The notes below the pieces were generated by a model. It made no database searches. It was not told the origin of the DNA and saw only the letters and a program-made list of their open reading frames with translations. Positions 2,260-19,549 of a stretch of DNA of 23,076 nucleotides are shown here, one piece after another. Within the stretch, counting starts at the first letter, position 1, and every line of letters starts with the position of its first letter. A program made the position numbers and the translations under genes. Source of the DNA: Promethearchaeota archaeon (GTDB taxonomy: Archaea; Asgardarchaeota; Lokiarchaeia; Sigyniarchaeales; SOKP01); contig JAFGGO010000125.1 of assembly GCA_016930515.1 (NCBI GenBank), forward strand, positions 1 to 23,076. Reading direction: 5' to 3'.

Positions 2260-3333
2260 TTAGATTAGGTTGAGTTTTGAATTAATTTCTTGCGTTTTAT
2301 TAATAATATTTCGTAATTCGTGCAAATCCTCGTCGAACATATTTTTCAGCAAGTATAACTTGAGTTTTTTTATTTTTTCCATCATTAATAAAAATTTAAA
2401 TTGGCAATCGCTATAAAGCTGATTGAGCTTGCCGTAAAGAGTTTTTGCGTGAGTTTGATCGTATTTTTCCAAGTTTATGATTAAATGCTTGAATTCTACT
2501 AAATAAACATATTTATTTAATTCTTTGAGCATCTCTCGACCGAGCTCGTTTAAATGGGCGATATTGTCGACTATTCCCGTTTTTAAAGTTAATTCAAAAT
2601 CTTGTTTGTACTTGCTAAACAATACGCCAAAATAATCCTTAATCTTGTCGTTTATGGCCTCTAAATTAATCTTAGGATTGATAAAAAAAGTAATAGTGTA
2701 TTTATTGTAACTAAAGGTTTGAAGTTTCATGTTAATGCCCGTCATCCTAAGCTCACTAAGTTCTTGCATATTTATGTTTTGGGAAAATTTCTCCAATGCA
2801 CTCACGAACATGGGAATGAGTTCAATATCAAATTCGGGATTTATTTCTTCTGCTTGTCCTTTAATGCATTCTTCTAGTGCTCCCTCGTATAGCTCGAGCG
2901 TAAGAAGCGTTTTTCCTCCCTTGTCAGCAATAAAACATCCTACTAAAGAGGGTTTCTTATCATCTGTGTTAGCAAAAGCGTTATTCTCGCTTTCTAAGGA
3001 TTTTAACAATCCCCCAAGTTCACCATTTGCATCTAAATCTTTTAAAACCACATTAAAATCACGTTTCGCCTTGTCAGATAAACTATAGAGATCTACATCG
3101 TTAACCGTCATTACTTCTAAAAAACCATTCTTTAGTAAGTAATCGAAGGCAGAATTAATTTCTTTTGCTGAGAGCTTGAGTTTAATGGGTAAACCCTTTT
3201 TTGAGACCACGATCTCGTGATTCACGCAATAAAGAACTTTAATGACGCTATCTAATTGAGTTTCTTTTAAAATGCCGGTATTAATTTCGTTAATCAAATG
3301 ATTCAAATCTAATGATTGGCTCTCGTTGGGCAT
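2260..3333 (-). CDS. Hypothetical protein: N-terminal winged-helix-like domain, central longin/roadblock-like domain, C-terminal helical region
   Basis: Start revised to ATG 3333 (MPNESQ), which has GAGG upstream. wHTH-like segment KLSAKEINSAFDYLLKNGFLEV...YSLSDKAK. Longin-like pattern GCFIADKGGKTLL...DIELIPMFVSALEKFSQNINMQELSELRM...KYTITFFI. Confidence 0.6.
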   Translation of the reverse strand: MPNESQSLDLNHLINEINTGILKETQLDSVIKVLYCVNHEIVVSKKGLPIKLKLSAKEINSAFDYLLKNGFLEVMTVNDVDLYSLSDKAKRDFNVVLKDLDANGELGGLLKSLESENNAFANTDDKKPSLVGCFIADKGGKTLLTLELYEGALEECIKGQAEEINPEFDIELIPMFVSALEKFSQNINMQELSELRMTGINMKLQTFSYNKYTITFFINPKINLEAINDKIKDYFGVLFSKYKQDFELTLKTGIVDNIAHLNELGREMLKELNKYVYLVEFKHLIINLEKYDQTHAKTLYGKLNQLYSDCQFKFLLMMEKIKKLKLYLLKNMFDEDLHELRNIINKTQEINSKLNLI

Positions 3334-3446
3334 CTTAACAAACCTCGTCAATATAATTATAAAAGAGGTGTTTAAAAAAGTGTTCAAATTTTTAATGGTT
3401 TGTTACCATAGAACGAATATGGAATTAAAAGGAGTCTCGTTAAAAA

Positions 3447-5832: not shown

Positions 5833-5905
5833 GAGCCCATGGTCTAGTGGTTATGACGTCCGCTTGACGTGCGGAAGGTCGGGAGTTCAATCCTCCCTGG
5901 GCTCA
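5833..5905 (+). tRNA. tRNA-Val(GAC), intronless, CCA not encoded
   Basis: Acceptor stem GAGCCCA/TGGGCTC plus discriminator A; D arm GTCT-AGTGGTTA-TGAC; anticodon stem TCCGC/GCGGA with loop TT-GAC-GT (anticodon 5866-5868); T arm GGGAG-TTCAATC-CTCCC. Confidence 0.97.
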
Positions 5906-6113
5906 TATTTTAATCGTTCTTATTTAACATTTCAAATAAATTTATCTCAATTTTCTAAATTCGGATAAATCTTTAAGATTTTTTTAATTAAATGCTATTT
6001 TACGATTACTAATATTCCTAATAGGCCGCTGCATAATGCAAGATTAAGAATAAGAAAATTAAATTACCCGAATGAAATCCTTAATTAATATTTAATCGAT
6101 ATGCACTTTCATT

Positions 6114-6135
6114 CATAATGCTTAAATAACTTTCA
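6114..6135 (+). promoter_or_regulatory. Putative BRE/TATA promoter of module 1 (CATAATGCTTAAATAACTTTCA)
   Basis: TTAAATA TATA-like box about 50 nt upstream of the 6176 CDS; near-identical to the element at 11502-11522. Confidence 0.6.
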
Positions 6136-6175
6136 TTGTTATTTTAACTTAATTTTTTAAAAATAGGAAATTTGA

Positions 6176-6739
6176 TTGAAAATGGAAAAAAAAAAATTAT
6201 ATTCAATAGCCGCAGTCGTAATCGTTGCTGCAATTCTCGTCCCTTCTATAATTGTTGCTGTCGTTCTTTTAACTCCTGCCGCAGTAGATCCCTGTGCTGG
6301 CGAAGAAGATATTTTATTATTTACAGGAAATGGATTAAAAAACAACTATACATATAGTGTGTGTGATTTACAAAAATCCACATACCAACAATATACAAAT
6401 GTAAATTTGAGTTATACAACAAAGGTAGAAACTACATATGCAATAGTCTCTGGAGTATCTCTTTGGGATTTTATAAATAAAAATCATATTTTAAAAACAG
6501 GTATAGATTCCGACACTACAAATGTGACCTTTGCTGCTTCAGGCTACACCATTACTTTGAATCTTACGACGGTTCAAACTTATCCCGCCGACATCATTAT
6601 AGTATATGGTGGAGATGATTTTGATCCTATCGTAGATGGACCTTTAAGATCTGCAGTCTCCAATAATGTTCTTGGTTTGCCTACAAGAACTAGTAAATAT
6701 TGGGTTTCGAACTTAGAAAACATCACCATATCTGTCTAA
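6176..6739 (+). CDS. Membrane-anchored extracytoplasmic protein with a sulfite-oxidase-like molybdopterin-binding domain, lacking the Mo-ligating Cys
   Basis: N-terminal basic patch plus TM helix; SGVSLWDFI, VTFAASGY, IIIVYGG and DGPLRSAV...SKYWVSNLENITI match the Oxidored_molyb pattern; several N-x-S/T sequons. Start TTG 6176 or ATG 6182. Confidence 0.7.
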   Translation: MKMEKKKLYSIAAVVIVAAILVPSIIVAVVLLTPAAVDPCAGEEDILLFTGNGLKNNYTYSVCDLQKSTYQQYTNVNLSYTTKVETTYAIVSGVSLWDFINKNHILKTGIDSDTTNVTFAASGYTITLNLTTVQTYPADIIIVYGGDDFDPIVDGPLRSAVSNNVLGLPTRTSKYWVSNLENITISV

Positions 6740-6750
6740 TTTTAAAAACC

Positions 6751-6762
6751 TTTTTTTTTTTT
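6751..6762 (+). terminator. Oligo-T tract, possible archaeal intrinsic terminator or attenuator inside module 1
   Basis: Run of 12 T beginning 12 nt after the 6739 stop codon. Confidence 0.4.
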
Positions 6763-6787
6763 AATTTTCATTATATATTTTATCACG

Positions 6788-7963
6788 ATGAAACGCAAGG
6801 ATTTAATTATTGGAATAGTATTAGTTGCTGCATCGATATCTGCGGGAATCATCGGTTATGCCGTTGTAGTGCTCTTAACTCAAGATAATACGGAAGATGT
6901 TTTCATACCTGGCTTGCCCGACGATTTTGAAGGTGCTCCTATCGGGGCAAATATAATTATCAGCAATGGTACTGACACTATGACAATATCTTTTGGCGAT
7001 ATCTTAGAGGGTGTAGAGTTATGGATGGAACAAGAAGTCACGGGCTTACAAATAAACGAGGAAAAGGATATCGTGGCATTACATGCTTATGACGATAAAG
7101 AAATTGGAAAAAGAATAACGGGCGTGGATATATTAGATATCCTTGAGATGTCTGGTATGAATTTTGCGTGGAACCTTGTTTTTAGCTCTACAAACGATGG
7201 AGAAACCAAAGCGCTTTCAAGAACAACAGGAAACATAATAGATGACGCAGCAGGGAGCTATCGACCGACTTTTATTGCCTTAGCAATTAATAAGAAATGG
7301 ATAAAGGACACTGCATATGCTGGGGAATGGGGGAACTTCACGGTTGTAGGTCGAAATCTCTCTGAAAAATTGTTTGACCTCCAGCAGATTAATATTATGT
7401 CTGAATGGAATGTAGATATTATCATAAACGGTGTAAAAAGTCCGTTTTCTATAAATACAACAAACATGTGGTATAATGCCGTTTGCCATAATTATTCCTA
7501 TTATCGAAGCGATTATTGGAACTTTAACAGGTCTTATATTGGAAGAACTATAGACGATATAGTAAAAAATGCCACTTATGGGATGGGTTTTACCGATTGG
7601 AATGTTAGTTTTGCCTGTGCCGATGGACTCGTTGATCCAAACCCTCCCTATAATAAATCTGAGATCGAAAACGGAATGGCAAACGATGGTTCTCTCACCA
7701 TACCCCGAAACAACGATGATAAAGTGAATATTACTGGCGGAGGTACTGGCGTTGGACTACCAATAACGAACCAAAAAATGGTATTGGTGTTTCGGTTAAT
7801 GCAATACGTCGAGGGTAACGCTGCTACGAATTCTTGGGATCCTGCTTGGGAGAATTATCATTATTGTGGGTATAGGCATGGGCCTTTTACCATTTATGTT
7901 CCGGGACGGACGAGATCGAACTTTCCAAAATATATCACGCAAATTATAATTGAGGCTTCCTAA
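6788..7963 (+). CDS. Membrane-anchored extracytoplasmic protein with two tandem, diverged sulfite-oxidase-like (molybdopterin-binding) domains
   Basis: N-terminal TM helix. Domain 1: ITGVDILDILE...LVFSSTNDG...IALAINKK...WGNFTVVG...LQQINI. Domain 2: YIGRTIDDIV...VSFACADG...MVLVF...HGPFTIYVPGRTRSNFPKYITQIII. About ten sequons. Confidence 0.6.
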   Translation: MKRKDLIIGIVLVAASISAGIIGYAVVVLLTQDNTEDVFIPGLPDDFEGAPIGANIIISNGTDTMTISFGDILEGVELWMEQEVTGLQINEEKDIVALHAYDDKEIGKRITGVDILDILEMSGMNFAWNLVFSSTNDGETKALSRTTGNIIDDAAGSYRPTFIALAINKKWIKDTAYAGEWGNFTVVGRNLSEKLFDLQQINIMSEWNVDIIINGVKSPFSINTTNMWYNAVCHNYSYYRSDYWNFNRSYIGRTIDDIVKNATYGMGFTDWNVSFACADGLVDPNPPYNKSEIENGMANDGSLTIPRNNDDKVNITGGGTGVGLPITNQKMVLVFRLMQYVEGNAATNSWDPAWENYHYCGYRHGPFTIYVPGRTRSNFPKYITQIIIEAS

Positions 7964-7966
7964 TTC

Positions 7967-8824
7967 ATGGAACTCAAAAAAAAAGCCCCATTTTTTTTTT
8001 TAATTATTTCCTTTTTTTTATTTTCGGGTATTATTACTAAACAAGCTATTGCATATCCCGGTTGGGAAGGAGATTGCGAGGCCCATCACGGAATTGGATC
8101 GGTTATCTCTAATTACGACGCTTCGGCACGGATCGTGCTTGATGGGCAATCTGACGAGAAATTCTGGTTAACCTATTCTAACAACAAGGCGTTCATTCCG
8201 TTGGCAACGGATATAACTAAGTCCGGAGGGTTTAACGTCACGCTCAACCTGACTTTTGTTCACAATAACAATTACTTATATATTTTATGCGAGTGGGAAG
8301 ATAACACTACCGTTCCTGCTGGATTTAATTACGATGGCTTGTTTTTTTGCTGGAACATTGATGTTCCTAATTTTACCGCAGATTTTTTAAGCGATATGAG
8401 CACCGATCACATGGGTAGTGGTAACATCGATTCTTGGAATTGGATCTACGACGATGATTTTGCCCTGGATAAGTGCTTCGGAGAAAAAGGATGGTTCGAT
8501 TCGAGCCTTGAAGCTCAAGACATTGAAGTGGCGTATTCCCTCGTTGAAAACGAATCTTATACCTTAGAAATACGAAGAGCGCTCACGACGGGCGATCAAC
8601 ATGATGTTAAATTCGATAAAACCGGGCTCTACGAGTTCAACCTTGCAATATTAAACGATGGAAGGCACGAAAACCACGCAATTTCGTGGACATACGCGTT
8701 GAACTTAAAGTTGCCTGCAAACGAGTTTCCAGTAGTAGTTGTTATAGTTATTGCGATTGTTAGCATCGCTGGAGTGGTTGTTGTCATTGGTGTGGTTTCT
8801 TATAGGAAAAAAAGAAGAAATTAA
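7967..8824 (+). CDS. Secreted, C-terminally anchored DOMON-like (ethylbenzene dehydrogenase gamma-type) putative heme-binding protein
   Basis: Signal peptide; IVLDGQSDEKFW, YLYILCEWED, M...GNIDSWNW, YTLEIRRALTTGD.HDVKF and FNLAILNDG..ENHAIS fit a DOMON/EB_dh pattern with candidate Met and His ligands; C-terminal TM helix plus RKKRR tail. Confidence 0.7.
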   Translation: MELKKKAPFFFLIISFFLFSGIITKQAIAYPGWEGDCEAHHGIGSVISNYDASARIVLDGQSDEKFWLTYSNNKAFIPLATDITKSGGFNVTLNLTFVHNNNYLYILCEWEDNTTVPAGFNYDGLFFCWNIDVPNFTADFLSDMSTDHMGSGNIDSWNWIYDDDFALDKCFGEKGWFDSSLEAQDIEVAYSLVENESYTLEIRRALTTGDQHDVKFDKTGLYEFNLAILNDGRHENHAISWTYALNLKLPANEFPVVVVIVIAIVSIAGVVVVIGVVSYRKKRRN

Positions 8825-8885
8825 AATAGATTTAAATCTGATATTAATCATATTAAATGATAAATAGAGTTTATTTCAAGACATC

Positions 8886-9512
8886 ATGAACGAAATTGAG
8901 AAGAAGGAAAACTTAACAGAAGAACAAGAAGACTTCGTTCCGACGGGCTTAGGTATTGATTCTCACAATAAGTTAAACAATCTCGACTTCATCTACTGCA
9001 TGATCATTGGTGTCATAGGGGGAATCATATCTAGCTTGGTTCCCTTTTCGTTACTCATTAAAGTCTGGTATCCGCTCACGGGAGGCACTCAACTCGTCAG
9101 CGGCCACCACCTAATTTGGGGGGCGCTCATATACGGGCTAACTAAGAAGAAAAAAACGATTTTAATTACAATGACGGCAAAAGGACTCCTGGAGTTTTTA
9201 TTTAACGATCCATGGGGGCTTATCATCGTGTTCGTAAACATACTCGAAGCTTCGTTCTTAGCGTTAGGCTTTATTCTCGTTGAACGGTTCCAAGAAGGAG
9301 ACAGTCGACTTGGTTGGGCCGTGGCAGGTGGTATCGGAAATTTCGTTCAAGCTCCCTTTTTTTGGATATTGAATCAGCGATTTTACTTGAATTGGATATT
9401 ATGGGTATTAGCGTTTACATTCGCAATTATATCAGGCATGTTAATCGTCGGAATCTTGGGAAGGGCTCTTAAAAATAGTCTTATCAAGTCAGGCGTTCCC
9501 ACTATTTTTTGA
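8886..9512 (+). CDS. ECF transporter substrate-binding S component, YkoE-like (paralog 1)
   Basis: About 200 aa with roughly 6 TM helices; DFIY.MI.GV.GGI, KGLLEFLFNDPWG and GGIGN; its paralog at 12223 is adjacent to ECF ATPase and T genes. Confidence 0.75.
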   Translation: MNEIEKKENLTEEQEDFVPTGLGIDSHNKLNNLDFIYCMIIGVIGGIISSLVPFSLLIKVWYPLTGGTQLVSGHHLIWGALIYGLTKKKKTILITMTAKGLLEFLFNDPWGLIIVFVNILEASFLALGFILVERFQEGDSRLGWAVAGGIGNFVQAPFFWILNQRFYLNWILWVLAFTFAIISGMLIVGILGRALKNSLIKSGVPTIF

Positions 9513-9576
9513 TATGAGAAATTCATCAATACAAATTAACAATAAAAAAAATACTATAAAAATTCTTTAATTAGCT

Positions 9577-10905
9577 TTAGTTCAGTCCTTTTTTCTCTTT
9601 TATTTTTTCAATGAGAATGTTAACGATTTCCCTGTCAGAGAGTAAGCCTTCGGGAGCGTCTTTTACCTTGCGCAACATTATAGGGATGTTATCCATGCGA
9701 TATGCCGTACCCTCGCATTCTACGCCGCATATCTTTACGGGAAAGACGATATCCGCGTATGCGGATGTGGGGGTCTCGTGAGGCTCTACCGAAATCATTG
9801 GATGTTTTAAAAGATTCTCTACTGCCGCAGCAGGTAAATTAAGCACGGGATCTGTTGCAATGATGAAGGAGACATCTATTTCGTTGCGAATAAGGCATGG
9901 TACCGTCGAAAATTCACCCATGTTATAACGTGGAAATCCTCGCGAAAAATCAATAGCGAGAGGGTATCCCGTATTCCACGAAAAGACGATGTTCGATCCT
10001 GCCACATTGTAATGCCCCCTCATTGGTTGGATGACAAATTTAGTGTAATCGTTTAGTTCTCTCGTCAAGCAGATTGCTGTGTCTACGTTTCTATGGTGTC
10101 CTTCCGAGTGTGTTAGACCCAATCCAAAGAATATAACTCCGAAATTAGCGCTTTTTAATCTTTCAACGAGCTTTTTCATGTCTTCTATGGGAACACCGGC
10201 CACTTGCTTGGCGTCTAATTCAACCCCTCGAAGCATTGCTCGAAGGGCGTTAAACAACTCGTAATCCTCGCTTGGATTTACTTGAATGTGCAGGTCCGCA
10301 ACTTGAGCCGTGTGCGTTTTTCGTGGGTCGACAACGATCATGTATCTATCGTTGCGGCCGTTTTTTGTAAAGCTTCCACGAATGAAGCTACTATATCGTC
10401 CCAAATGGCGAGGATGAGCGTGAATTGGGTTGCAGCCCCAGAATATCACCAAATCTGCTCGATTTCTATATTCTCCAAGAGTAGAACTGGGTATGCCCAC
10501 GTCCTGAACCGCCAGAAGGCTTGGCCCGTGGCAAATGGAAGAGCAATTATCGAGAATTCCGCCCGTGATTTCTGCCAGCTCTACGCCCCTGCTGATGGCT
10601 TCAGCTTCCGTGCTAGACCATCCATACAACAAGGGTCTTTTAGCTTTTGCTAACAAATCTGCAGTTTTATCCAAGGCTTCCTCCCAGGTTACCTCCACGA
10701 GCTTACCATTTTTTCTAATCATGGGTTTTTTATATCGATGGGCATTGCTTTCGTTCGAAGCGAAATAAATTTGCGTTCCAATTTGGCAAGCGTTTCTAAC
10801 TTCCACGACTTCGTTATTTACTATGTCCACTTCCAAGTCATCGCATAAGCTCCCGCAAAATGGGCAAACAACATCGGTTTTGGTTTGAATTTTTCCTTGA
10901 ACCAC
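9577..10905 (-). CDS. fwdB: Formylmethanofuran dehydrogenase subunit B (Mo/W-bis-pterin catalytic subunit), Cys form
   Basis: CPFCGSLCDD...C Fe-S motif, DNCSSICHGPS metal-ligand motif, NRADLVIFWGCNPIHAHPRH, MRGHYNV and GTAYRMDNIP. Start revised to GTG 10905, preceded by AGGAGG directly after the fwdD stop. Confidence 0.95.
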   Translation of the reverse strand: MVQGKIQTKTDVVCPFCGSLCDDLEVDIVNNEVVEVRNACQIGTQIYFASNESNAHRYKKPMIRKNGKLVEVTWEEALDKTADLLAKAKRPLLYGWSSTEAEAISRGVELAEITGGILDNCSSICHGPSLLAVQDVGIPSSTLGEYRNRADLVIFWGCNPIHAHPRHLGRYSSFIRGSFTKNGRNDRYMIVVDPRKTHTAQVADLHIQVNPSEDYELFNALRAMLRGVELDAKQVAGVPIEDMKKLVERLKSANFGVIFFGLGLTHSEGHHRNVDTAICLTRELNDYTKFVIQPMRGHYNVAGSNIVFSWNTGYPLAIDFSRGFPRYNMGEFSTVPCLIRNEIDVSFIIATDPVLNLPAAAVENLLKHPMISVEPHETPTSAYADIVFPVKICGVECEGTAYRMDNIPIMLRKVKDAPEGLLSDREIVNILIEKIKEKKGLN

Positions 10906-10918
10906 TTTTTTTCTCCTC

Positions 10919-11323
10919 CTATATTTGTTGTTCCACCTTGTATTTTTTGACAACTTCTAGGGAATCCAACACTTTTCCGTTTTGTACTACTTCAAGCTTG
11001 GCTTTTAATCCCTTGTATCCTGGAGTACCCATTCCGTCTGTAATGGGGCTAACAATTTGGTTTGCCCAAGGTCCTGCGGGAATGAAGATCACACCTGGAT
11101 GTGGCCCTTCTTCTGTAATTCTCGAGTAGACCAATACCTCACCGTGATCGGTAGTCACGCGAACTGGTGTCCCTGGAATGCAATCAAGTTTGATAAAGTC
11201 ATCCCTATCTATCATACATACCGCTGCTGCTCGAACATAATTTCTCTTAGTCTTTCCCGATTCTAAAGCAATACCTTGATCAATATTTTGACCCGTTATG
11301 AGTATTAGATTGTCCAATCTCAA
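10919..11323 (-). CDS. fwdD: Formylmethanofuran dehydrogenase subunit D (molybdopterin dinucleotide-binding)
   Basis: Motifs LITGQNIDQG..LESGK, V.VTTDHGEV, GVIFIPAGPWAN and TDGMGTPGYKG; TTG start with AGGAG upstream; directly upstream of fwdB. Confidence 0.92.
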   Translation of the reverse strand: MRLDNLILITGQNIDQGIALESGKTKRNYVRAAAVCMIDRDDFIKLDCIPGTPVRVTTDHGEVLVYSRITEEGPHPGVIFIPAGPWANQIVSPITDGMGTPGYKGLKAKLEVVQNGKVLDSLEVVKKYKVEQQI

Positions 11324-11418
11324 TTTTATGACTCCTATCCGTTTAGTAATGAGATATTTGTTTTTCTAATGATCTGAAAAAAAAATATTTTAGTTTGAGC
11401 TGATAAAGGCTAAAAAGA

Positions 11419-11522
11419 ATATAAAACTTGCGGTTATGTCCGTTAGTACACAACGCTCAGGTAATGCCATTATCACTTGATGGGCGATGCGAACAGCCGT
11501 ACATAACGCTTAAATAATTTCA
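11419..11522. promoter_or_regulatory. Divergent promoter region for fwdDB (- strand) and module 2 (+ strand)
   Basis: The - strand reads ACATAACCGC-AAG-TTTTATA (11440 down to about 11420). The + strand reads ACATAACGC-TTAAATA (11501-11516). A palindrome TATCA-CT-TGAT lies centrally at 11471-11481. Confidence 0.55.
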
Positions 11523-11668
11523 ATTATTTACTTGAATAATATTAAAAAATAAATTAGTTACTACGAGAAATCGAGAGCTAATTCCCACTATATGGCGCAC
11601 ATCAAAATCAAGTTGCTAATTGAGAAAATAGGTTAATTAAATAATCTTAAAACATTATAAATCTAAAA

Positions 11669-12226
11669 ATGAATCGTAGGAACTTTTACATCTTAATCTT
11701 TTGCATAATTTTTGGTAATTTCGTGTTTTGGATAAATGTATATGCGTTCGTACTATTTGATGTAGATTTATTCCAAGTAAACAACGGTACCATAGTTATC
11801 AAAGGAGAGGGTGTGAAAAACGAATTCAGGATCTCCCTGACCGAGCTAAAATCTGAGGAATACCTTCAAATCGTCGACAAAGAATTTAACTTTCTAAATT
11901 CGGTCGGTAATCAATACTCCGAGATCTATTCAGGAGTCTCTTTAGGAAGTCTTTTACAGGTAAAAGACATGCTACTCGAAGACCCTGCGGAGCTCACTTT
12001 TCGTTTTTATTCTTTAGATGGATATGTGAGCCCAATGGCACTTAATTTGTCTTTAGCAACGACTTATATGGAAGACGTGATTTTAGCATACGAGTTAGAC
12101 GGATCGTCGATGGATCAATATACAGGACCAGTTAGGTCGGTAATTAATAGAAATGTAATCCCAGATCTAGCAAATTCTCAATATGCCGTAAAGCAACTGA
12201 ACCAGATTTTAATTGAGATCGTATGA
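11669..12226 (+). CDS. Membrane-anchored sulfite-oxidase-like molybdopterin-binding domain protein, lacking the catalytic Cys
   Basis: N-terminal TM helix; ISLTELK, YSGVSLGSLL, FYSLDGY, VILAYELDG and GPVRSVI...SQYAVKQLNQILI; homologous to 6176..6739. Confidence 0.75.
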   Translation: MNRRNFYILIFCIIFGNFVFWINVYAFVLFDVDLFQVNNGTIVIKGEGVKNEFRISLTELKSEEYLQIVDKEFNFLNSVGNQYSEIYSGVSLGSLLQVKDMLLEDPAELTFRFYSLDGYVSPMALNLSLATTYMEDVILAYELDGSSMDQYTGPVRSVINRNVIPDLANSQYAVKQLNQILIEIV

Positions 12227-12945
12227 GTGGTGGGAAAATAATTAGTTCTGATATTATTCTCGTTAATGACTTTTTAACAACTATACGAGGCAAATATATA
12301 TTGACGGAAGCAACATCAATCCCTTCCATTTTAGATAACCCCGAAGAAGTCGAAGAAGTTCAAGAATACGAAGCAACGGGACTTGGAACGGACGATTCGA
12401 AACGATTGACGAATTTGGATTTTATTTATGCGATGATTTTTGGAGTGTTAGGTGGAATTATATCCAGTTTAGTGCCATTCAGCCTACTAATTAAAGTGTG
12501 GTACCCTTTCGTTGGTGGAGCTCAATTTGTTAGTGCCCATCACGTGATATGGGGGGCACTTGTTTATGGACTTACAAAAAAGAAAAATAACATAATGCTT
12601 GTGATGTCTGTTAAAGGAATATTAGAATTCTTGTTTAACGATCCTTGGGGCGTACTCATCATCTTTGTAAATCTATTTGAAGGGGCCTTCTTGGTATTAG
12701 GATTTATATTGGCGGAAAAATTTAAGGAAGGAGACACTCGTCTTGGTTGGGTCGTAGCAGGAGGGTTCGGAAATTTCTTTCAAGCGCCATTTTTCTGGCT
12801 CTTAAACCAGAGATTTTACCTTCATTGGGTTTTATGGGTCATTACCTTCTCATTTGCAATCATTTCTGGAATGTTGATAATTGGTATCATGGCCAGATCT
12901 CTAACGAATAACCTCATCAAGGCTGGAGTTCCAACAACATTTTGA
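12223..12945 (+). CDS. ECF transporter S component, YkoE-like (paralog 2); alternative start TTG 12301
   Basis: Aligns without gaps to 8886..9512 over the core (about 70% identity counted by eye); directly upstream of ECF ATPase and T genes. ATG 12223 overlaps the previous stop (ATGA), while TTG 12301 has GAGG upstream and matches the paralog's length. Confidence 0.8.
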   Translation: MSGGKIISSDIILVNDFLTTIRGKYILTEATSIPSILDNPEEVEEVQEYEATGLGTDDSKRLTNLDFIYAMIFGVLGGIISSLVPFSLLIKVWYPFVGGAQFVSAHHVIWGALVYGLTKKKNNIMLVMSVKGILEFLFNDPWGVLIIFVNLFEGAFLVLGFILAEKFKEGDTRLGWVVAGGFGNFFQAPFFWLLNQRFYLHWVLWVITFSFAIISGMLIIGIMARSLTNNLIKAGVPTTF

Positions 12946-12991
12946 TAGTCGAGGTGCTATAAAAATCATAAATCGCCCTTTAGCAATCAAT

Positions 12992-14764
12992 GTGAATAAC
13001 TTCTCGTTTATTTATGGTGATGATAAAAATGCCATCCCTGTAGTTTCAGATGTTTCCTTCAAGGTTCACGAAGGAGAAACCTTAGTCATAGCGGGACCGA
13101 GTGGAAGCGGGAAATCAACCATTAGTTATGCCTTAAATGGGGCAATACCGTGGAGAATAAAAGGTTTTGCTAAAGGACAGGTTGAGATAATGCAAAAAAA
13201 CGCAAAAGAGTACAAATTCTTCGAACTATCTAAGCTAGTTGGATTGGTGTCTCAAAATCCCTTGGATCAATTGGTTACGTTTAATGTCTACGACGAAATC
13301 GCTTTTGGACTCGAAAACTTGCTCGTACCAAAAATACAAATTGAGTCTGAAATCGAGGAAATTGCTCAATTTATGGGCATTCATCACTTGCTTGAAAGAG
13401 AGATCGACCAGCTCAGCGGAGGTCAAATGCAACTGGTACTTCTAAGTTCGTTTCTCGTAATGAAGCCTCGAATTCTCATTTTAGACGAGCCCATGGCGTA
13501 CTTGGACCAAAAATCGGAAAGCTTACTATTGGAAAAGTTAAAATTACTGAAGAATTCTAAAAACTTTAACTTAACCTTAATAATTATCGAACATAGACTT
13601 TCTAGAGTGCTTGATCTTACTGATAAGATCCTCGTTTTAGATGTAAATGGTAAAGTAGCTCTTAAGGGGAAAAAGAAAGATGTTATAGGTTATAATTACG
13701 ATCAATTACGTCAATGTAACCTTAGAATACCCTGGATGTTAGAATTATTAAACGATCTAAAAGAAAATATCCCTATATTTCAATTAACCCAAGAACCAAT
13801 TAAATATAACTCTCTTTTAGAACAATTAAATTTCCTCAATCAAGAAGAACTAATGCTCATTCGCAATTATTTATATAATACGATCATAAATCCTCTTGAA
13901 TTTCAAAAATACGATTCTTACGAAAAAGAAATTCAATTTCAAGAGCTTTACATTAAATCGTTGAAAAATAAGTGCCTACGAAAAAATATAACACCAACTA
14001 AATCTTTTCAAGAACCTAATGATGTCATTTTAGATATAAGAAACTTGTTCTTCCAATACCCAAACTCAAGTGTCCTTGCGATAAATGGCCTGTCTTTCAC
14101 TGTTGAAAGAGGTGATTTTATCGGTCTTGTTGGACCGAATGGGGCTGGAAAAACTACCCTATTGTATGTATTAGCGAATCTATACAAGCCCACTTCTGGA
14201 GAAATATATTACAAGGGAAATAACTTGGCAAACATCGATTCATTCAAGTTTTCAAAAGATGTGGGATTTATATTTCAAAATCCCGAAAACATGATCTTTA
14301 AGAATACAATACAAAGCGAGCTATTGTATGGCCCAGAAAACTTTAACATTCTTGAAGATATAACGGAAGAATACATACAAAAATTAATGCTTTTAATAGG
14401 CGAAAAAGACGAAAATAAAAATCCGTTTAATTTAAGCTGGGGACAAAAACGAAGGTTAAATCTTAGCTCCGTGTTTATTTACGATCCCGAAATAATCTTA
14501 CTTGATGAGCCTTTTATCGGGCAAGACCAAAGAACGATAGATTTTCTCATTGAAACGCTTTACATAGAAAACAAGCGTGGAAAAACCATCATCATATCTT
14601 CACACGACTACCAATTGCTCCTCAAATACACGAAAAAAATCATGGAACTAAACAAGGACGGTTCGTTGAGAACCTATGAAAACAAAGAAGCTTATTTTAA
14701 AAAACACAAAAATTTGGGACCAATACAATTATTAGAAAAATTAAATTCCTTGATTAAAGAATAG
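12992..14764 (+). CDS. ECF transporter ATPase with two fused ABC domains (YkoD-like); the true start is probably slightly upstream
   Basis: Domain 1: GPSGSGKST, QNP, LSGGQ, ILDEP, IIEH. Domain 2: GPNGAGKTT, FQNPE, LSWGQKRR, LLDEPFIGQD, SSHD. Confidence 0.92.
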   Translation: MNNFSFIYGDDKNAIPVVSDVSFKVHEGETLVIAGPSGSGKSTISYALNGAIPWRIKGFAKGQVEIMQKNAKEYKFFELSKLVGLVSQNPLDQLVTFNVYDEIAFGLENLLVPKIQIESEIEEIAQFMGIHHLLEREIDQLSGGQMQLVLLSSFLVMKPRILILDEPMAYLDQKSESLLLEKLKLLKNSKNFNLTLIIIEHRLSRVLDLTDKILVLDVNGKVALKGKKKDVIGYNYDQLRQCNLRIPWMLELLNDLKENIPIFQLTQEPIKYNSLLEQLNFLNQEELMLIRNYLYNTIINPLEFQKYDSYEKEIQFQELYIKSLKNKCLRKNITPTKSFQEPNDVILDIRNLFFQYPNSSVLAINGLSFTVERGDFIGLVGPNGAGKTTLLYVLANLYKPTSGEIYYKGNNLANIDSFKFSKDVGFIFQNPENMIFKNTIQSELLYGPENFNILEDITEEYIQKLMLLIGEKDENKNPFNLSWGQKRRLNLSSVFIYDPEIILLDEPFIGQDQRTIDFLIETLYIENKRGKTIIISSHDYQLLLKYTKKIMELNKDGSLRTYENKEAYFKKHKNLGPIQLLEKLNSLIKE

Positions 14765-14775
14765 AGAGATGTCAA

Positions 14776-15654
14776 GTGGGAAAGAATAAAGTTGAAAATC
14801 TGGACAAGAAAAAGCTAATATTCGCTTATTATCCTGGAAATTCTTTCATGCACGGATTAAACCCTCTTTCTAAGTTATTTTTTCTTATTATCTTAACTTT
14901 TATCGTATTTATTATAAGGAGTCTTATCTTACTGAGTGTTATCTCGCTTCTAATAATCTTTACCGCACTAGGCTCAGGTATTTCGCTTAAAAATTTAGCA
15001 CATAAACTGAAATTCATGGTTATACTCATAGTTTTTAGCGTCATTATTAACATTTTCTTCAATGCCAGTTATATAAATGGCGAAATATTGTTCTACTTGT
15101 TTGGTCTTGATTTTCTGCCCATTCGACGTCTGGCATTATATTATTCGTTAAGAGTATTCTTTAGCGTGTTGTCTCTTTATACATCCACCATCATTTATAC
15201 GAGCACCACGCACATGAAGCATTTCGTTTATGCCTTGATGAAACTCAAAATTCCTTATACATTTTGCTTTCATTTTATGGTCGGGATTCGATACATACCG
15301 ATGATTGAAAAAGAGGTAAAAACAATCGCTTTGGCTCAAAAAGCCCGTGGATCAAGATTAGAAAAAGTAAATAGTGTGAAAAAGGCTTATAATTTCATAT
15401 TTGATCGTTTAAATTCCGCATTAGTATCCATATTGAGAAAGGGATATACTACGTCTCTTTCCATGGAAAATCGCTGCTTCGGTATTTATAAGACGAGAAC
15501 GAACATTACTGAAATCAGATTTAGGTCTCGGGATTTTTTTTTCGTATTAATTTCGTTAATTTTATTTGTTTTTCTTTTGCTATATAACCTAATTGCACTC
15601 CCCATACCTCAAGTTCCTTCGCTATATCAAATTTTTGTTGATTTTTTAAGCTAG
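14776..15654 (+). CDS. ecfT: ECF transporter transmembrane T component
   Basis: SFMHGLNPLSKL, IRYIPMI, AQKARG and SMENRCF coupling-helix motifs; multiple TM helices. Confidence 0.92.
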   Translation: MGKNKVENLDKKKLIFAYYPGNSFMHGLNPLSKLFFLIILTFIVFIIRSLILLSVISLLIIFTALGSGISLKNLAHKLKFMVILIVFSVIINIFFNASYINGEILFYLFGLDFLPIRRLALYYSLRVFFSVLSLYTSTIIYTSTTHMKHFVYALMKLKIPYTFCFHFMVGIRYIPMIEKEVKTIALAQKARGSRLEKVNSVKKAYNFIFDRLNSALVSILRKGYTTSLSMENRCFGIYKTRTNITEIRFRSRDFFFVLISLILFVFLLLYNLIALPIPQVPSLYQIFVDFLS

Positions 15655-15850
15655 AATTTCATAAATTCTCTATAACCCGTCCTTGATAAAATTAGTTCAT
15701 TAGATTAATAGACCGATTGTTTTAAAAAACTATTTATAACACAATCAAATTTCATTCCCATATTGTTTAAATTTCAATTAGTTTTAATTTGGTTGAATAA
15801 TTATTATTTTATAATTTTATATTGAAAAGAATAAGATTAGATTCGAAAAT

Positions 15851-16336
15851 ATGCCCCTTAGAATACTATGGAAATCAAACGAATACCTGCCATTTGCCTT
15901 AATGATGTTAGGTGCCTGTGGATTGTATCAGTGGCTTTTTATATTTGTTGCACAGTATTTATTACATATCGGAGACTATTTGATAATCTTGGTGATTCCC
16001 ATAGCCATTACGGGAGCACTTTTTCTTTCAACTAAAATCCTTTTCGAAGGTTACGCCCAAGTCAAAAGACGGAAAAAATTAAAAAATCAATTCATGAAAA
16101 AAGGTATTTTAGACACAAGAGCTCAAAAGATATTAGCGTTTCCTATTTCAAAACCCCTATTAATCGTATTCGCTTTATTCACGGGTGTTTTTATTGCAAC
16201 CTACGCTATCTGCGCCGCTGCTGCCTCGTTAGATGTGATCTTGAGCTTCTTGATTTCTGAAAATGTAGGTGCGATTTGCTGTATCTTTTTCGCAAATTAT
16301 TTCGAAAGAAATTACGCAAAAATCAGGAAATTTTAA
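15851..16336 (+). CDS. Hypothetical membrane protein (about 4 TM helices with a basic loop)
   Basis: Four hydrophobic stretches and a KRRKKLK loop; no family recognised. Confidence 0.7.
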   Translation: MPLRILWKSNEYLPFALMMLGACGLYQWLFIFVAQYLLHIGDYLIILVIPIAITGALFLSTKILFEGYAQVKRRKKLKNQFMKKGILDTRAQKILAFPISKPLLIVFALFTGVFIATYAICAAAASLDVILSFLISENVGAICCIFFANYFERNYAKIRKF

Positions 16337-16420
16337 TTTTTATAACTAATTAAAAGTCTAATTTACAAATTGAGGCACAATTATAATCCTTGAAAAAGAA
16401 AACCTCAAATTATCAATATA

Positions 16421-16906
16421 TTATTTGTATCTTGTGTTTAATTGTATCCCAAATTTAATTGCGTCTTCAGTCCCTAACTTGAATAATTTTCTGAAAACAT
16501 TTTGATTTATCACTCTTGCTCCCTTCTCCTCGACCTTGTCTTTCATGTGATAAAGTGCCTTCTTTCCCGTAATACGCGCGGTGGTAAAAACGACTGCCTC
16601 TTTTCCACTCAAATTTTTTCCTTTTGAAACAATTTCTTCGAAAATCTTTGGAGGAAATCTCCCGTGCGTGGGCATGCCGAATAATAATATATCAAAGCTG
16701 GAAAAATCAATATTATTTAATATTGTTTCAAACAAGGAGAAATCATTTTTCCGCATACTAGCCAAATACTTTTTTTTTTCGCTCGAATTACCATTTAATT
16801 CTATTGGAAGGAAACTTACATCGAATACCGAAAGTTTGCTCGCAATTGCTTCGGCTGTCTGTTTAGTTCTCCCAGTCATCGTAAAATAAATGATGAGTGC
16901 TTTCAT
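16421..16906 (-). CDS. Flavodoxin-like protein
   Basis: Start revised to ATG 16906. MKALIIYFTMTGRTKQTAEAIA is an FMN phosphate-loop motif; FDILLFGMPTH and LSGKEAVVFTT follow. Confidence 0.85.
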   Translation of the reverse strand: MKALIIYFTMTGRTKQTAEAIASKLSVFDVSFLPIELNGNSSEKKKYLASMRKNDFSLFETILNNIDFSSFDILLFGMPTHGRFPPKIFEEIVSKGKNLSGKEAVVFTTARITGKKALYHMKDKVEEKGARVINQNVFRKLFKLGTEDAIKFGIQLNTRYK

Positions 16907-17160: not shown

Positions 17161-17676
17161 ATGAAAGAAAAACCAGATTATGAAAAATATCCCATAAGCG
17201 ACGAAGAAATGGGCGAACGATACAAAAATTGGACGGAATCCCTTTCCAGGCAAATGCTCGTGCTCTATAAAATAGGTAAAGAAGTTGGAGGTCAAAAGTT
17301 CGTCGAAAGACTCAAGGAAGAATATCGAAAAATGGGCCAGAGAGATGCTGGAATGTGGACGAAGTTAGTTGGCATGAGCCCGGAAGAATTCAAGGATTGC
17401 TCAAACTTACCCAAGGTCTACAATTGCATTGATGATAGGTTTGCAAATTTCTGGAACGGTTACGTTGAGAACACGCCAAAGGCTTTTGAGAAAGAATTGT
17501 ATACCTGCCCCGTTGCAAGGCCGTGGTCGAGGGAACCCGAAATATGTGAGCTTTTATTAGGTGAAGCGCTTAAAGGGATGGCCGAAACGCTCAACCCGAA
17601 GTTTAAATCTGAAGGATTCACGAAATTACTCGTTAAGGGCGATAAATGCTGTCGCTACAGGGTCGAGATGGAGTAG
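17161..17676 (+). CDS. L-2-amino-thiazoline-4-carboxylate hydrolase-like (V4R-related) Cys-containing protein
   Basis: Cys pattern TCPVARPW...EICE...LNP...LLVKGDKCCRYRVE; GAGG upstream of the ATG. Confidence 0.65.
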   Translation: MKEKPDYEKYPISDEEMGERYKNWTESLSRQMLVLYKIGKEVGGQKFVERLKEEYRKMGQRDAGMWTKLVGMSPEEFKDCSNLPKVYNCIDDRFANFWNGYVENTPKAFEKELYTCPVARPWSREPEICELLLGEALKGMAETLNPKFKSEGFTKLLVKGDKCCRYRVEME

Positions 17677-17683
17677 GATTGAA

Positions 17684-18178
17684 TTGGCGAATGATCAAAA
17701 CATGGAAGAGCAGCTAAAGAAACTCGAACAAAAAGCTGGTGATTACGAACAGCTGTTCCAAAATTGCGCCCAAGGAACATTATTAGCGCTACAAGAACAT
17801 TTTGGTCTTGGAGATTCAAATACTCTAAAAGCAGCAACGGCCTTCCCCGGCATAGCGCTCAGGGGAGAGACCTGCGGAGCAGTTATTGGATCCATCATGG
17901 CACTCGGACTCGCCTTCGGACGCGATAAACCTGAGGATCTTGCCTCATTACAACGCACGATTAGCGCTGCTCGGAAGTTATGTCACCTCTTTGAGAAGGA
18001 ATTTGGTAGTTGCAATTGTCGAGATGTTCAACATTGCTTGTTTGGTCGAAATTACGATCTCATGAAACTAAAGGACCAACAAGAGTTTATTAAATCCGGA
18101 GACGCTAAAAAATGCCGAATCGCGGTAGGAAAAGCTGCAAGAATCACAGGAGAAATCATATTAAACGGCCTGGAGTGA
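17684..18178 (+). CDS. C_GCAxxG_C_C family putative redox protein (start TTG 17684 or ATG 17702)
   Basis: NCAQG, GETCGAVIG, FGSCNCRD and C-terminal KKC. The upstream part of the track ORF overlaps the previous gene and is probably not translated. Confidence 0.88.
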   Translation: MANDQNMEEQLKKLEQKAGDYEQLFQNCAQGTLLALQEHFGLGDSNTLKAATAFPGIALRGETCGAVIGSIMALGLAFGRDKPEDLASLQRTISAARKLCHLFEKEFGSCNCRDVQHCLFGRNYDLMKLKDQQEFIKSGDAKKCRIAVGKAARITGEIILNGLE

Positions 18179-18226
18179 GATTTATAAATTGAATCAAATT
18201 AAAAATATTAAACAATTTGGGAAGGT

Positions 18227-19216
18227 TTGCAAATGGTAAAGATCAACACTGTTCTAGGTCCTATTGATCCAGAAGATATGGGTTTAACATTGCCCCATGA
18301 ACATATATCCGCAGGTTATCCTGGATGGGAGTGCGATCCGCTCTCGAGACCTTACGATCGGGAAAAGATAGTTAATGTCTGTATTAAGAACCTCGAACCA
18401 ATTAAGAAATATGGCGTTAAAACCATCATTGATGCCACTCCTCTGGATCTCTCAAGGGATGTCGAAGTAATGAAGGCCGTGTCGGAAAAACTTCAAATTC
18501 ATATCATCTGTTCAACGGGGCGCTACAAGGAAAATGGTGGCAAGTGGTTCTATTTTCGTCAGAGAGAGGAAGGAAAAATCGGCGAAATGAAGACCGAACT
18601 CTACGAGGGGTTCATGCGGGAATTAACCCATGGTATTGGTCTGACCGGTATCAAGCCAGGAGTCATTAAGGTGGCATCCGGATTAAATCAAATATCTTCG
18701 TGCGAAGACGCTTCATTGAGGGCAGCCGCTCGTGCCAGCAAGGAAACCGAAACGCCCATCATGACCCACACGGAAGATGGAACGATGGGACCCGAGCAGG
18801 CAGATCTTCTCATTAGTGAAGGTGTGAAACCACATAAGATCGTAATTGGTCACATGTGTGGCAACCCTTCATTAGAATATCAAGAGGATGTATTAATTCG
18901 AGGCGTATATATCGCTTTCGATAGGTTTGGAATCGAGATGCTGGTTCCCGATAAAGTTCGCATCGCCATGTTGGTCGAGCTCTTGAAAAAAGGATATGAG
19001 GATCGCATAATGCTCTCGCAGGATTTCATTGGTTGCAGTTTTGGAAGGGGCGGTAGAATGCCTGAAGAAATGTTAAAACTGGTTATGAACTGGTCTTTTA
19101 CGAATATTTTCCATAATGTAATTCCTGCTCTTAAAAAAGCCGGAATCAGCGACAAACAAATCAACACTATGACGATTGACAATCCAATGCGCTATTTAAG
19201 TGGTATTTCGAGTTAA
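18227..19216 (+). CDS. Phosphotriesterase/lactonase-family amidohydrolase (PHP/PTE)
   Basis: INTVLGPI...LPHEH, DATP, IKVA (carbamylated Lys position), THT, GHM, FDRFG, LSQD and DNP. Confidence 0.92.
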   Translation: MQMVKINTVLGPIDPEDMGLTLPHEHISAGYPGWECDPLSRPYDREKIVNVCIKNLEPIKKYGVKTIIDATPLDLSRDVEVMKAVSEKLQIHIICSTGRYKENGGKWFYFRQREEGKIGEMKTELYEGFMRELTHGIGLTGIKPGVIKVASGLNQISSCEDASLRAAARASKETETPIMTHTEDGTMGPEQADLLISEGVKPHKIVIGHMCGNPSLEYQEDVLIRGVYIAFDRFGIEMLVPDKVRIAMLVELLKKGYEDRIMLSQDFIGCSFGRGGRMPEEMLKLVMNWSFTNIFHNVIPALKKAGISDKQINTMTIDNPMRYLSGISS

Positions 19217-19237
19217 ATAAAAGAGGAGGAATAACTC

Positions 19238-19549
19238 ATGGGAAAATGTAAGATTACGGTGTTAGAGACCCAATTTAACGAAAAACTTGCCAAGGAATAT
19301 GGTGTTGCAAATATCGGTCCGTGCCCGGTCCACGAGGTTGGACAGGTTTTTATAACGGATCATTTTAGACCCGAAGACTTTTGCCCCGAAGCTTGGAAAT
19401 CAATCCAACATTATGTGTTCGCACTAGTTCATGGCATGAAAGGAACATTTTTCGACAATCGATGGGTGCGTTTTGAAGGAGTATCCATCAATAGCTGTAA
19501 CGATGGGCTTCGCCCTGTTATTTTTAAATTAGAACAGCTGGGGGATTAA
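19238..19549 (+). CDS. TIGR04076-family Cys-containing protein
   Basis: KCKITVL, GPCP, FCPEAW and SCNDGLRPVIFKLE; GAGGAGG ribosome-binding site. Confidence 0.85.
   Translation: MGKCKITVLETQFNEKLAKEYGVANIGPCPVHEVGQVFITDHFRPEDFCPEAWKSIQHYVFALVHGMKGTFFDNRWVRFEGVSINSCNDGLRPVIFKLEQLGD

Follow-up and report, generated by a model that had tools for sequence, protein, structure and literature searches.

Ten genes and three putative operators make up the locus, which lies within the 23,076 nucleotides analysed as a whole (the window); a check of open reading frames found all ten genes where a previous sequence-only reading of this DNA had placed them. Module 1, on the plus strand, encodes SO1 (6176-6739), a single N-anchored, Cys-less SUOX-fold domain; SO2 (6788-7963), an N-anchored protein with two SUOX-fold domains in tandem, neither of which has the metal-ligand Cys, as judged by hhalign, AF2 models and orthologues; a DOMON/EbdC-like surface protein with a C-terminal anchor (7967-8824); and S1 (8886-9512), a YkoE-like ECF S component matching PF09819 above cut-off. 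Second copies of fwdB (9577-10953; TIGR03129, E 2e-180) and fwdD (10919-11323; PF01568) follow on the minus strand. Module 2, again on the plus strand, encodes SO3 (11669-12226), another N-anchored Cys-less SUOX-fold domain (PF00174, E 1e-5); S2 (12223-12945), a PF09819 S component just below cut-off with an S-G/A-H-H motif; AA (12992-14764), a fused double ECF ATPase (A-A') matching TIGR04521 and TIGR04520 above cut-off; and EcfT of the CbiQ family (14776-15654; PF02361, E 2e-26). Positions 5963-16500 are matched with zero differences by a Logan contig that probably derives from the source run, and the gene layout is therefore not a mis-assembly. The divergent promoter region proposed for fwdDB and module 2 was confirmed, as the 345-bp gap between the divergent fwdD and SO3 genes contains two ModE-type boxes. 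An Rfam search of the window returned tRNA only, and no TPP riboswitch.

Each of the three SO proteins has a single hydrophobic anchor at its N-terminus, together with several N-x-S/T sequons. The sulfite-oxidase likeness first noticed in the sequence held up in HMM and structure comparison, through the PF00174 match of SO3 and the SUOX Moco-binding fold of the AF2 models of SO2 and SO3. The SO3 model (pLDDT 97) aligns with SorA (2blf) at Z 16.7 and rmsd 2.1 over 133 residues, and with PruR (7rkb) at Z 15.1. In the model of SO2 (pLDDT 86.5), whose position as first gene of the cassette is conserved among orthologous loci, the N-domain matches SoxC (2xts; Z 13.0, rmsd 2.8, 124 aligned) and the C-terminal part matches 2blf (Z 11.2, rmsd 3.1, 127 aligned). 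SO1, paralogous to SO3 (27% identity, E 1e-14), has a divergent pocket in which the GPxR Arg aligns but the DGY Asp and the Lys are missing. Relative to the catalytic domains of the sulfite oxidase family (SorA 2BLF, SoxC 2XTS, MsrP/YedY 1XDQ), the fold is shared (Z 12-17) and the GPxR and VK motifs of SorA align, but the SO proteins here lack the Mo-ligand Cys, the N-terminal pocket segment and the dimer domain, and occur as single or repeated anchored modules. The Cys site of SO3 is Asn77, an Asn in 22 of 24 orthologues, and none of 111 aligned domains has a Mo-ligating Cys in this hairpin-tip column. The hairpin is nonetheless full-length, its Asn77-Gly89 spacing equalling the Cys-Gly spacing of a catalytic SUOX neighbour. 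Pocket residues D117, Y119, R156 and K175 of SO3 are conserved in 24, 23, 19 and 14 of the 24 orthologues, respectively. Two observations count against binding of a cofactor: the K175 position is Gln in 9 of 24, and the missing N-terminal part of SUOX enzymes also contacts the pterin.

The S components match those of a group I ECF system, a PF09819 protein with its own A-A' and T directly after S2, in an order repeated in 25 of 26 related loci; the His-His motif (S-G/A-H-H) is conserved in the clade. YkoE (5edl) was the sole relevant solved match (E 0.035), and in the register of that match its thiamine ligands Y46, W49, E77 and Q95 (PMC5037267) correspond to S72, H75, E103 and E121. Like the cassette, the operon for the group I ECF thiamine importer YkoEDC of Bacillus subtilis (PDB 5EDL; PMC5037267) encodes a PF09819 S component together with T and a fused double ATPase. 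The cassette differs in having Ser and His where YkoE has Tyr46 and Trp49, in a ModE box in place of a THI box, in its additional anchored SUOX-fold and DOMON proteins, and in tracking the loss of Moco synthesis. Modelling of S2 with SO3 gave an ipSAE of 0.76 (best of three controls, 0.00), a mark reached by 58 of 80 solved and 2 of 110 mismatched pairs, with runs agreeing on at least 96% of contacts and partner pLDDT of at least 87. In the modelled complex, residues 77-81 and 115-120 of SO3 contact the outer loops of S2. No S-SO fusion occurred among 148 representative matches.

Cassette order is conserved across the class as tandem SO-fold protein, optional DOMON protein, SO-fold protein, S, AA and T. 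SO3 lies directly upstream of S in 25 of 26 loci, which bears out the linkage of this S clade to SO-like genes that the sequence-only reading had proposed to survey. In four genomes the cassette is directly upstream of the moa operon (with tupABC between in G151, where the 345-aa gene after the cassette is TupA-like), and in three others (G062, G063, G089) it is upstream of moaD/moaB remnants. Moco riboswitches (four RF01055 matches) precede two bacterial loci that encode a phosphodiesterase, a PF09819 S component, an SO-like protein, A, A, T and mobB; because the bacterial S components are 16-17% identical to the cassette S and lack the HH motif, this riboswitch link is one of architecture, not orthology. 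Bacterial homologues elsewhere adjoin FMN-binding and Fer4_5 proteins, and three further loci (P0240, P0264, P0267) had no ECF context.

Across 161 genomes of the class, the S component and cofactor synthesis (moaC or moeA) are nearly exclusive, in a check that the sequence-only reading had proposed: 11 genomes have both, 52 S only, 75 synthesis only and 23 neither (OR 0.065; the genomes are related, so p-values are overstated). The alternation recurs inside genera, with 1, 10, 39 and 4 genomes in these classes in g11 and 0, 20, 12 and 10 in g12, and also inside g5 and g18. S-only genomes retain FwdB (41 of 52) or AORs, and moaE was absent from all five tested. Three single-contig genomes, G013, G016 and G021 (MK-D1), lack moaC, moeA, moaE and mobA and have 6-7 AORs each; a mobA-like gene is kept in both FwdB-containing genomes tested. 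A TupA-like protein or WtpA occurs in 27 of 28 synthesis-only and 0 of 38 S-only genomes, as scored with a TupA protein query, since neither WtpA, a rare protein, nor PF12849, which matches further binding proteins as well, separated the groups alone. Against the pattern stand the 23 genomes with neither, FwdB being present in many of them; completeness is 61-92% for most, although G143 has a rating of 100%. Relatives with the importer are mostly unable to make the cofactor although they retain its client enzymes, and so probably take it up ready-made.

A ModE position weight matrix trained on sites of relatives, with the motif as in PMC12327845, identified three operators of the RTTATGT-N8-RCATAAY class, none assigned a strand. 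That of module 1 (6097..6120; score 18.6, sixth-best non-coding site in the genome) is directly followed by the TATA-like TTAAATA, that of fwdDB (11432..11455; 23.2, second-best) adjoins a minus-strand TATA-like element, and that of module 2 (11485..11508; 20.0) precedes TTAAATA. The remaining three of the top six sites lie at wtpA and, twice, at the fdh operon, and shuffled sequences gave no site above 17. A 15-mer is shared by 6114 and 11502, two occurrences where 0.02 would be expected. The motif was found 5' of the cassette in 21 of 21 relatives. A GC-richer stretch at 11430-11510, considered as a structured RNA, was rejected on weak folding (z -1.2, -2.1) and the lack of an Rfam match, and consists of two ModE-type palindromes. 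In the archaeal ModE regulon of Methanosarcina acetivorans (PMC12327845), the same box precedes Mo/W ABC transporters and formylmethanofuran dehydrogenase; the targets in its Table 1 include no ECF/SO-fold cassette, and the candidate regulator here, unlike that ModE, is a short HTH protein encoded on contig C130 (E 2.5e-9, below cut-off) whose homologue matches ModE structures. In one relative a ModE-like gene flanks the cassette.

It is quite likely that the cassette imports a metal-loaded W/Mo-pterin cofactor, with binding and transport predicted. Import through an ECF system, with non-catalytic proteins of SO fold capturing a Mo/W-pterin cofactor, was the core of the sequence-only reading; it is thus retained, backed by gene profile, regulation, pocket residues and the modelled SO3-S complex, whereas the centring on fwdDB and the supply of Fwd are not. 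The proposed system would be a group I ECF importer dedicated to W/Mo-MPT or bis-MPT, in which anchored Cys-less SUOX-fold domains may capture the labile cofactor extracellularly and protect it, with no covalent bond to the metal. SO3, held to the S component through its anchor helix, would offer its pocket at the mouth of S, and EcfT and the fused ATPase would power the usual ECF release on the inside. The imported cofactor could pass to AOR-family enzymes directly, or via MobA to Fwd and Fdh; a ModE-type regulator would co-control cassette, tungstate uptake and W/Mo enzymes, and the DOMON protein may keep the cofactor reduced.

Import of bare tungstate or molybdate in place of TupABC/WtpABC would agree with the ModE boxes, which typically control oxyanion uptake (PMC12327845), with the missing TupA/WtpA of S-only genomes and with the conserved His-His motif. 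A bare metal would, however, be unusable in S-only genomes because moaC, moeA and, where tested, moaE are missing; in addition, SUOX-fold capture domains suit a pterin and not an oxyanion, and this genome also has wtpABC, and the oxyanion reading is held to be improbable. Equally improbable is a metal-free cargo, whether a simple pterin or an MPT precursor. PruR (PDB 7KOS, 7RKB, 7KP2, 7KOM; PMC11194511), like SO3 a small extracytoplasmic Cys-less SUOX fold, is periplasmic and binds monapterin and neopterin; an equivalent of its N-x-Y pair is retained in SO3, with the stacking Tyr as Y119, and moaD and moaB remain next to the cassette in g11. PruR, however, has a Trp at the Cys site (PW motif) and a shortened hairpin, in contrast to the Asn and full-length, catalytic-type hairpin spacing of SO3; it signals to DcpA, whereas SO3 is membrane-anchored, keeps the Arg and Lys and is coupled to a transporter, its partner genes being ECF parts and not of dcpA type. 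RFAP synthase, a methanopterin control, occurs with or without the cassette (36 of 38 S-only, 27 of 28 synthesis-only), and ModE and Moco-riboswitch control indicate Mo/W. A pterin precursor, which the sequence-only reading had allowed as cargo, is not a likely one: S-only genomes have no MoeA, without which metal insertion is impossible, and MoaE was absent wherever tested.

The chance is smaller still that the cassette imports haem, using the DOMON protein as a haemophore, or forms a redox complex at the cell surface. His41 and His237 of the DOMON protein are invariant and Met144 is present in 14 of 16, its Pfam EB_dh/DOMON matches are weak and below cut-off, and it matches NxrC (7b04) at E 6e-5; the FMN-binding and Fer4_5 neighbours of bacterial homologues and the absence of hemB from 65 of 66 genomes of the class tested would also fit. 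But the DOMON protein is an optional part, absent from 7 of 19 cassettes, hemB is missing from carriers and non-carriers alike (present in 0 of 38 S-only and 1 of 28 synthesis-only genomes), and the exclusion with moa/tup genes and the ModE boxes would be left without explanation. A CxxHH motif of this protein, tried as a conserved HH, was rejected, with His40 in only 4 of 16. Least credible of all is a YkoEDC-like thiamine/HMP importer with unrelated SO-fold neighbours, since PF09819 membership, the YkoE match and some database names of thiamin/HMP permease are set against the replacement of Trp49 and Tyr46, the window without a TPP riboswitch, thiC loss that is unrelated to S (11 of 63 carriers, 12 of 98 others, p 0.37) and the SO3 gene immediately 5' of S.

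The literature searched, with most subscription papers outside its scope, yielded neither an ECF or other prokaryotic Moco importer, as the sequence-only reading had stated for ECF importers of pterin cofactor, nor a published description of the cassette; a T11SS preprint merely speculated on molybdopterin uptake. According to a 2021 review (PMC9026282), uptake of Moco is beyond most organisms and the free cofactor is chemically labile; both points, and the question of an extracellular source, count against the import reading. The sole exception in that review is C. elegans, by an unknown route: dietary uptake of protein-bound Moco there (10.1101/2020.10.08.332338) likewise uses cofactor made by other organisms, with no transporter known, whereas the cassette is a defined prokaryotic candidate with named parts, operator and predicted contact surface. 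We lean towards the broader view that Asgard archaea including Promethearchaeum syntrophicum MK-D1 are W/Mo-cofactor auxotrophs that take intact metal-pterin from other cells via an ECF transporter in which the S component acts together with a Cys-less SUOX-fold subunit dedicated to capture, the cofactor being a vitamin that anoxic communities exchange. Roughly one in three Lokiarchaeia-class genomes, including MK-D1, would then rely on neighbours for their W-enzyme cofactor. For the syntrophy and cultivation of Asgard archaea this would be a new dependency open to testing, and the capture domains may serve as Moco/Wco carrier proteins.

The present genome departs from this pattern. One contig (C47) carries moaC-moaA-moaD-moaE-moeA-moaB-moeA and wtpABC; the host is thus not an auxotroph, a circumstance that counts against the import reading, and uptake here would be optional salvage. 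The cassette has moved out of its usual slot beside the moa operon, with S duplicated and a second fwdDB gained, and would operate next to de novo synthesis. This fwdB is intact, with the [4Fe-4S] cysteines and CHG ligand present in alignment and 600 bits against a TIGR03129 cut-off of 328; it is 66%, and fwdD 60%, identical to the copies on another contig (C150). The system is not built around fwdDB, which is absent beside the cassette at all 26 loci in other genera and reduced to a fwdB remnant in the sole congener; fwdDB here is a genus-level insertion. Nor does supply of Fwd describe its role, as MK-D1 and other complete genomes combine the cassette with AORs and lack FwdB. S1 and S2, 70% identical, form one clade with both congener copies (support 100/100), and by this sequence phylogeny S1 is an extra S copy from duplication within the genus.

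ORF calls and family matches agreed in placing ten genes where the sequence-only reading had put them: the sulfite-oxidase-like (SO) genes SO1 (6176-6739) and SO2 (6788-7963), a DOMON gene (7967-8824) and S1 (8886-9512), fwdB (9577-10953) and fwdD (10919-11323) on the reverse strand, then SO3 (11669-12226), S2 (12223-12945), a fused double ATPase (AA, 12992-14764) and EcfT (T, 14776-15654). The window covers an entire contig of a 4.0-Mb genome that is 94% complete, and 5963-16500 is spanned, with zero differences, by a contig that probably comes from the source run. The system had been thought to be built around fwdDB; comparison with relatives (Promethearchaeota, including P. syntrophicum MK-D1) instead identified the cassette as the conserved unit. 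Across 26 loci of other genera, two ending at contig borders, the genes run tandem SO, optional DOMON, SO3, S, AA and T, with SO3 immediately 5' of S in 25/26 and fwdDB adjoining the cassette in 0/26. In the congener G033 both S genes recur, separated only by the 3' end of fwdB (L001:1577-1987); because fwdD and most of fwdB are deleted and the operator is joined to that 3' end, the inserted fwdDB is decaying there. S1, S2 and both G033 copies form a single clade (support 100/100), which together with the G033 layout places both duplication of S and insertion of fwdDB within the window's genus.

The same genome carries a main fwdDBC operon on contig C150 and a divergent fwdBDA on C38. Its C47 holds moaC, moaA, moaD, moaE, moaB, two moeA copies and wtpABC, and the genome also encodes four AORs as well as mobA-like genes. 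Because it is able to make the cofactor, it is an atypical carrier of the cassette, and the S duplication, inserted fwdDB and shared ModE boxes are additions peculiar to the window. In G052, G151, G153 and G154, which keep both systems, the cassette immediately precedes the moa operon (tupABC intervening in G151); that it sits away from this usual slot in the window could be due to relocation at a tRNA locus. A tRNA-Val(GAC) occupies 5833-5905, and the module 1 operator lies 190 bp downstream of it.

Among 161 genomes of the class, the S clade (E < 1e-40) was found in 63 and synthesis genes (moaC or moeA) in 86; 11 genomes have both, 52 S only, 75 synthesis only and 23 neither, the last counting as a doubt on the import reading. 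Kinship among genomes inflates the p-values of this profile. Since the alternation recurs within genera g5, g11, g12 and g18, the exclusion is not one ancestral split, and the control markers thiC (thiamine), RFAP synthase (methanopterin) and hemB (haem) showed no such pattern with S. Tungstate binding proteins are encoded by 27/28 synthesis-only genomes and by 0/38 S-only ones; because the capacities to build the scaffold, insert the metal and take the metal up are lost together, the profile points to the finished cofactor as the imported species. FwdB is kept in 41/52 S-only genomes. The single-contig genomes of MK-D1, G013 and G016 have 6-7 AOR-family genes each and none of moaC, moaE, moeA, mobA or FwdB, and a mobA-like gene is kept in both FwdB-positive S-only genomes tested. 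AORs use W-bis-MPT without a nucleotide, whereas Fwd requires the guanine dinucleotide form, a difference that fits this loss and retention of mobA. Downstream of the cassette in G062, G063 and G089 come a catalytic SUOX-cytochrome b gene, moaD and moaB. Such MsrPQ-like genes (L003:12206-13252, L047:12210-13268, L062:5039-6085) fuse a catalytic SUOX domain, its Cys kept, to a DUF4079/cytochrome b561-like membrane part; lying 3' of the cassette in genomes unable to make Moco, the fusion is a likely client of imported cofactor.

The SO3 model (pLDDT 97) has the sulfite-oxidase (SUOX) Moco-binding fold, matching SorA 2blf (Z 16.7, rmsd 2.1, 133 residues) and PruR 7rkb (Z 15.1), with the next unrelated match at Z 5; SO1 is its paralogue, and SO2 consists of two such domains in tandem. 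None of 111 SO domains has Cys at the metal-ligand column. SO3 Asn77 sits 12 residues before Gly89, equal to the Cys-Gly spacing of the catalytic SUOX neighbour, and SO3 retains D117-x-Y119 as well as R156 and K175, which align with SorA Arg and Lys, residues that hold the MPT phosphate in SUOX structures. PruR, also a Cys-less SUOX fold, binds simple pterins with the ring stacked on Tyr104 beside Asn102, but has Trp at the Cys column and a shortened hairpin (PMC11194511), unlike the Asn77 and catalytic-type spacing of SO3. An S2-SO3 complex model scored 0.76 (best control 0.00), a mark reached by 58/80 solved and 2/110 mismatched pairs, with contacts agreeing at least 96% between runs and partner pLDDT at least 87. 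In it, the SO3 anchor packs against the final helix of S, and SO3 residues 77-81 and 115-120 contact its outer loops; the model supports, and does not show, a putative cofactor hand-over from SO3 to S. Where YkoE stacks thiamine on Trp49 and Tyr46 (PMC5037267), the alignment register gives S His75 and Ser72.

Position 6114, where the sequence-only reading had the system begin, falls inside a palindrome matching RTTATGT-N8-RCATAAY, the archaeal ModE box established by gel shift in Methanosarcina (PMC12327845), and a ModE-type box lies 5' of the cassette in 21/21 relatives. With a matrix trained on those 21 upstream regions, its seed pattern taken from them by eye, the six best non-coding sites genome-wide were window 11432, 11485 and 6097, the wtpA promoter, and C166:23244 and C166:27927, flanking formate transporter-hdrC-hdrB-fdhA; nothing in shuffled sequence exceeded 17, and the moaC site scored 10.6. 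Because the seed was read from cassette upstream regions, the wtpA and fdh matches are the independent part of the operator evidence. C130 carries a short ModE-like gene, a homologue of which adjoins the cassette in G010. Two low-GC metagenome loci from bacteria have SO-domain homologues in operons with a phosphodiesterase, a distant PF09819 S component (16-17% identity), a small SO-like gene, two ATPases, T and mobB; a Moco/Wco riboswitch heads each of these operons (four RF01055 matches). In bacterial loci L065 and L066 the riboswitch-led operons encode large multi-SO proteins anchored to the S-layer, alongside FMN-binding and Fer4_5 (NapH/NosR-like) partners, an arrangement that hints at a redox step on the surface tied to capture of the cofactor.

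The cassette encodes a transporter of the known ECF type whose proposed substrate and capture subunit are undescribed; a literature search found no prokaryotic Moco importer, and according to a review C. elegans is the sole known case of Moco uptake (PMC9026282). Quite probably, anchored SO domains would capture W/Mo-pyranopterin, SO3 would pass it to S, and ATP-driven release would deliver it to AORs directly or, after conversion by MobA, to Fwd/Fdh, the import system being under ModE-type control. Ligand, transport and DOMON role we infer in each case. Doubt attaches to so labile a cofactor having to come from outside, and to a DOMON protein carrying candidate haem ligands while the class is without hemB. 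hemB (ALA dehydratase) was found in 1/66 genomes of the class, in which conserved DOMON proteins of haem type are common.

In MK-D1 and relatives (L007, L057, L058, L068) the double ATPase and EcfT form one fused protein of 850-880 aa, and G157 (L059:8567-9274) has a divergent S component 6 kb from focA-hdrCB homologues, with no SO, A or T genes beside it. Elsewhere in the window, 17161-19549 holds a 171-aa gene of no assigned family, a C-GCAxxG-C-C protein, a phosphotriesterase-like protein and a TIGR04076 protein, and the gene at 2260-3387 appears, judged by eye, to have a winged-helix-like N-terminus and a longin/roadblock-like middle.
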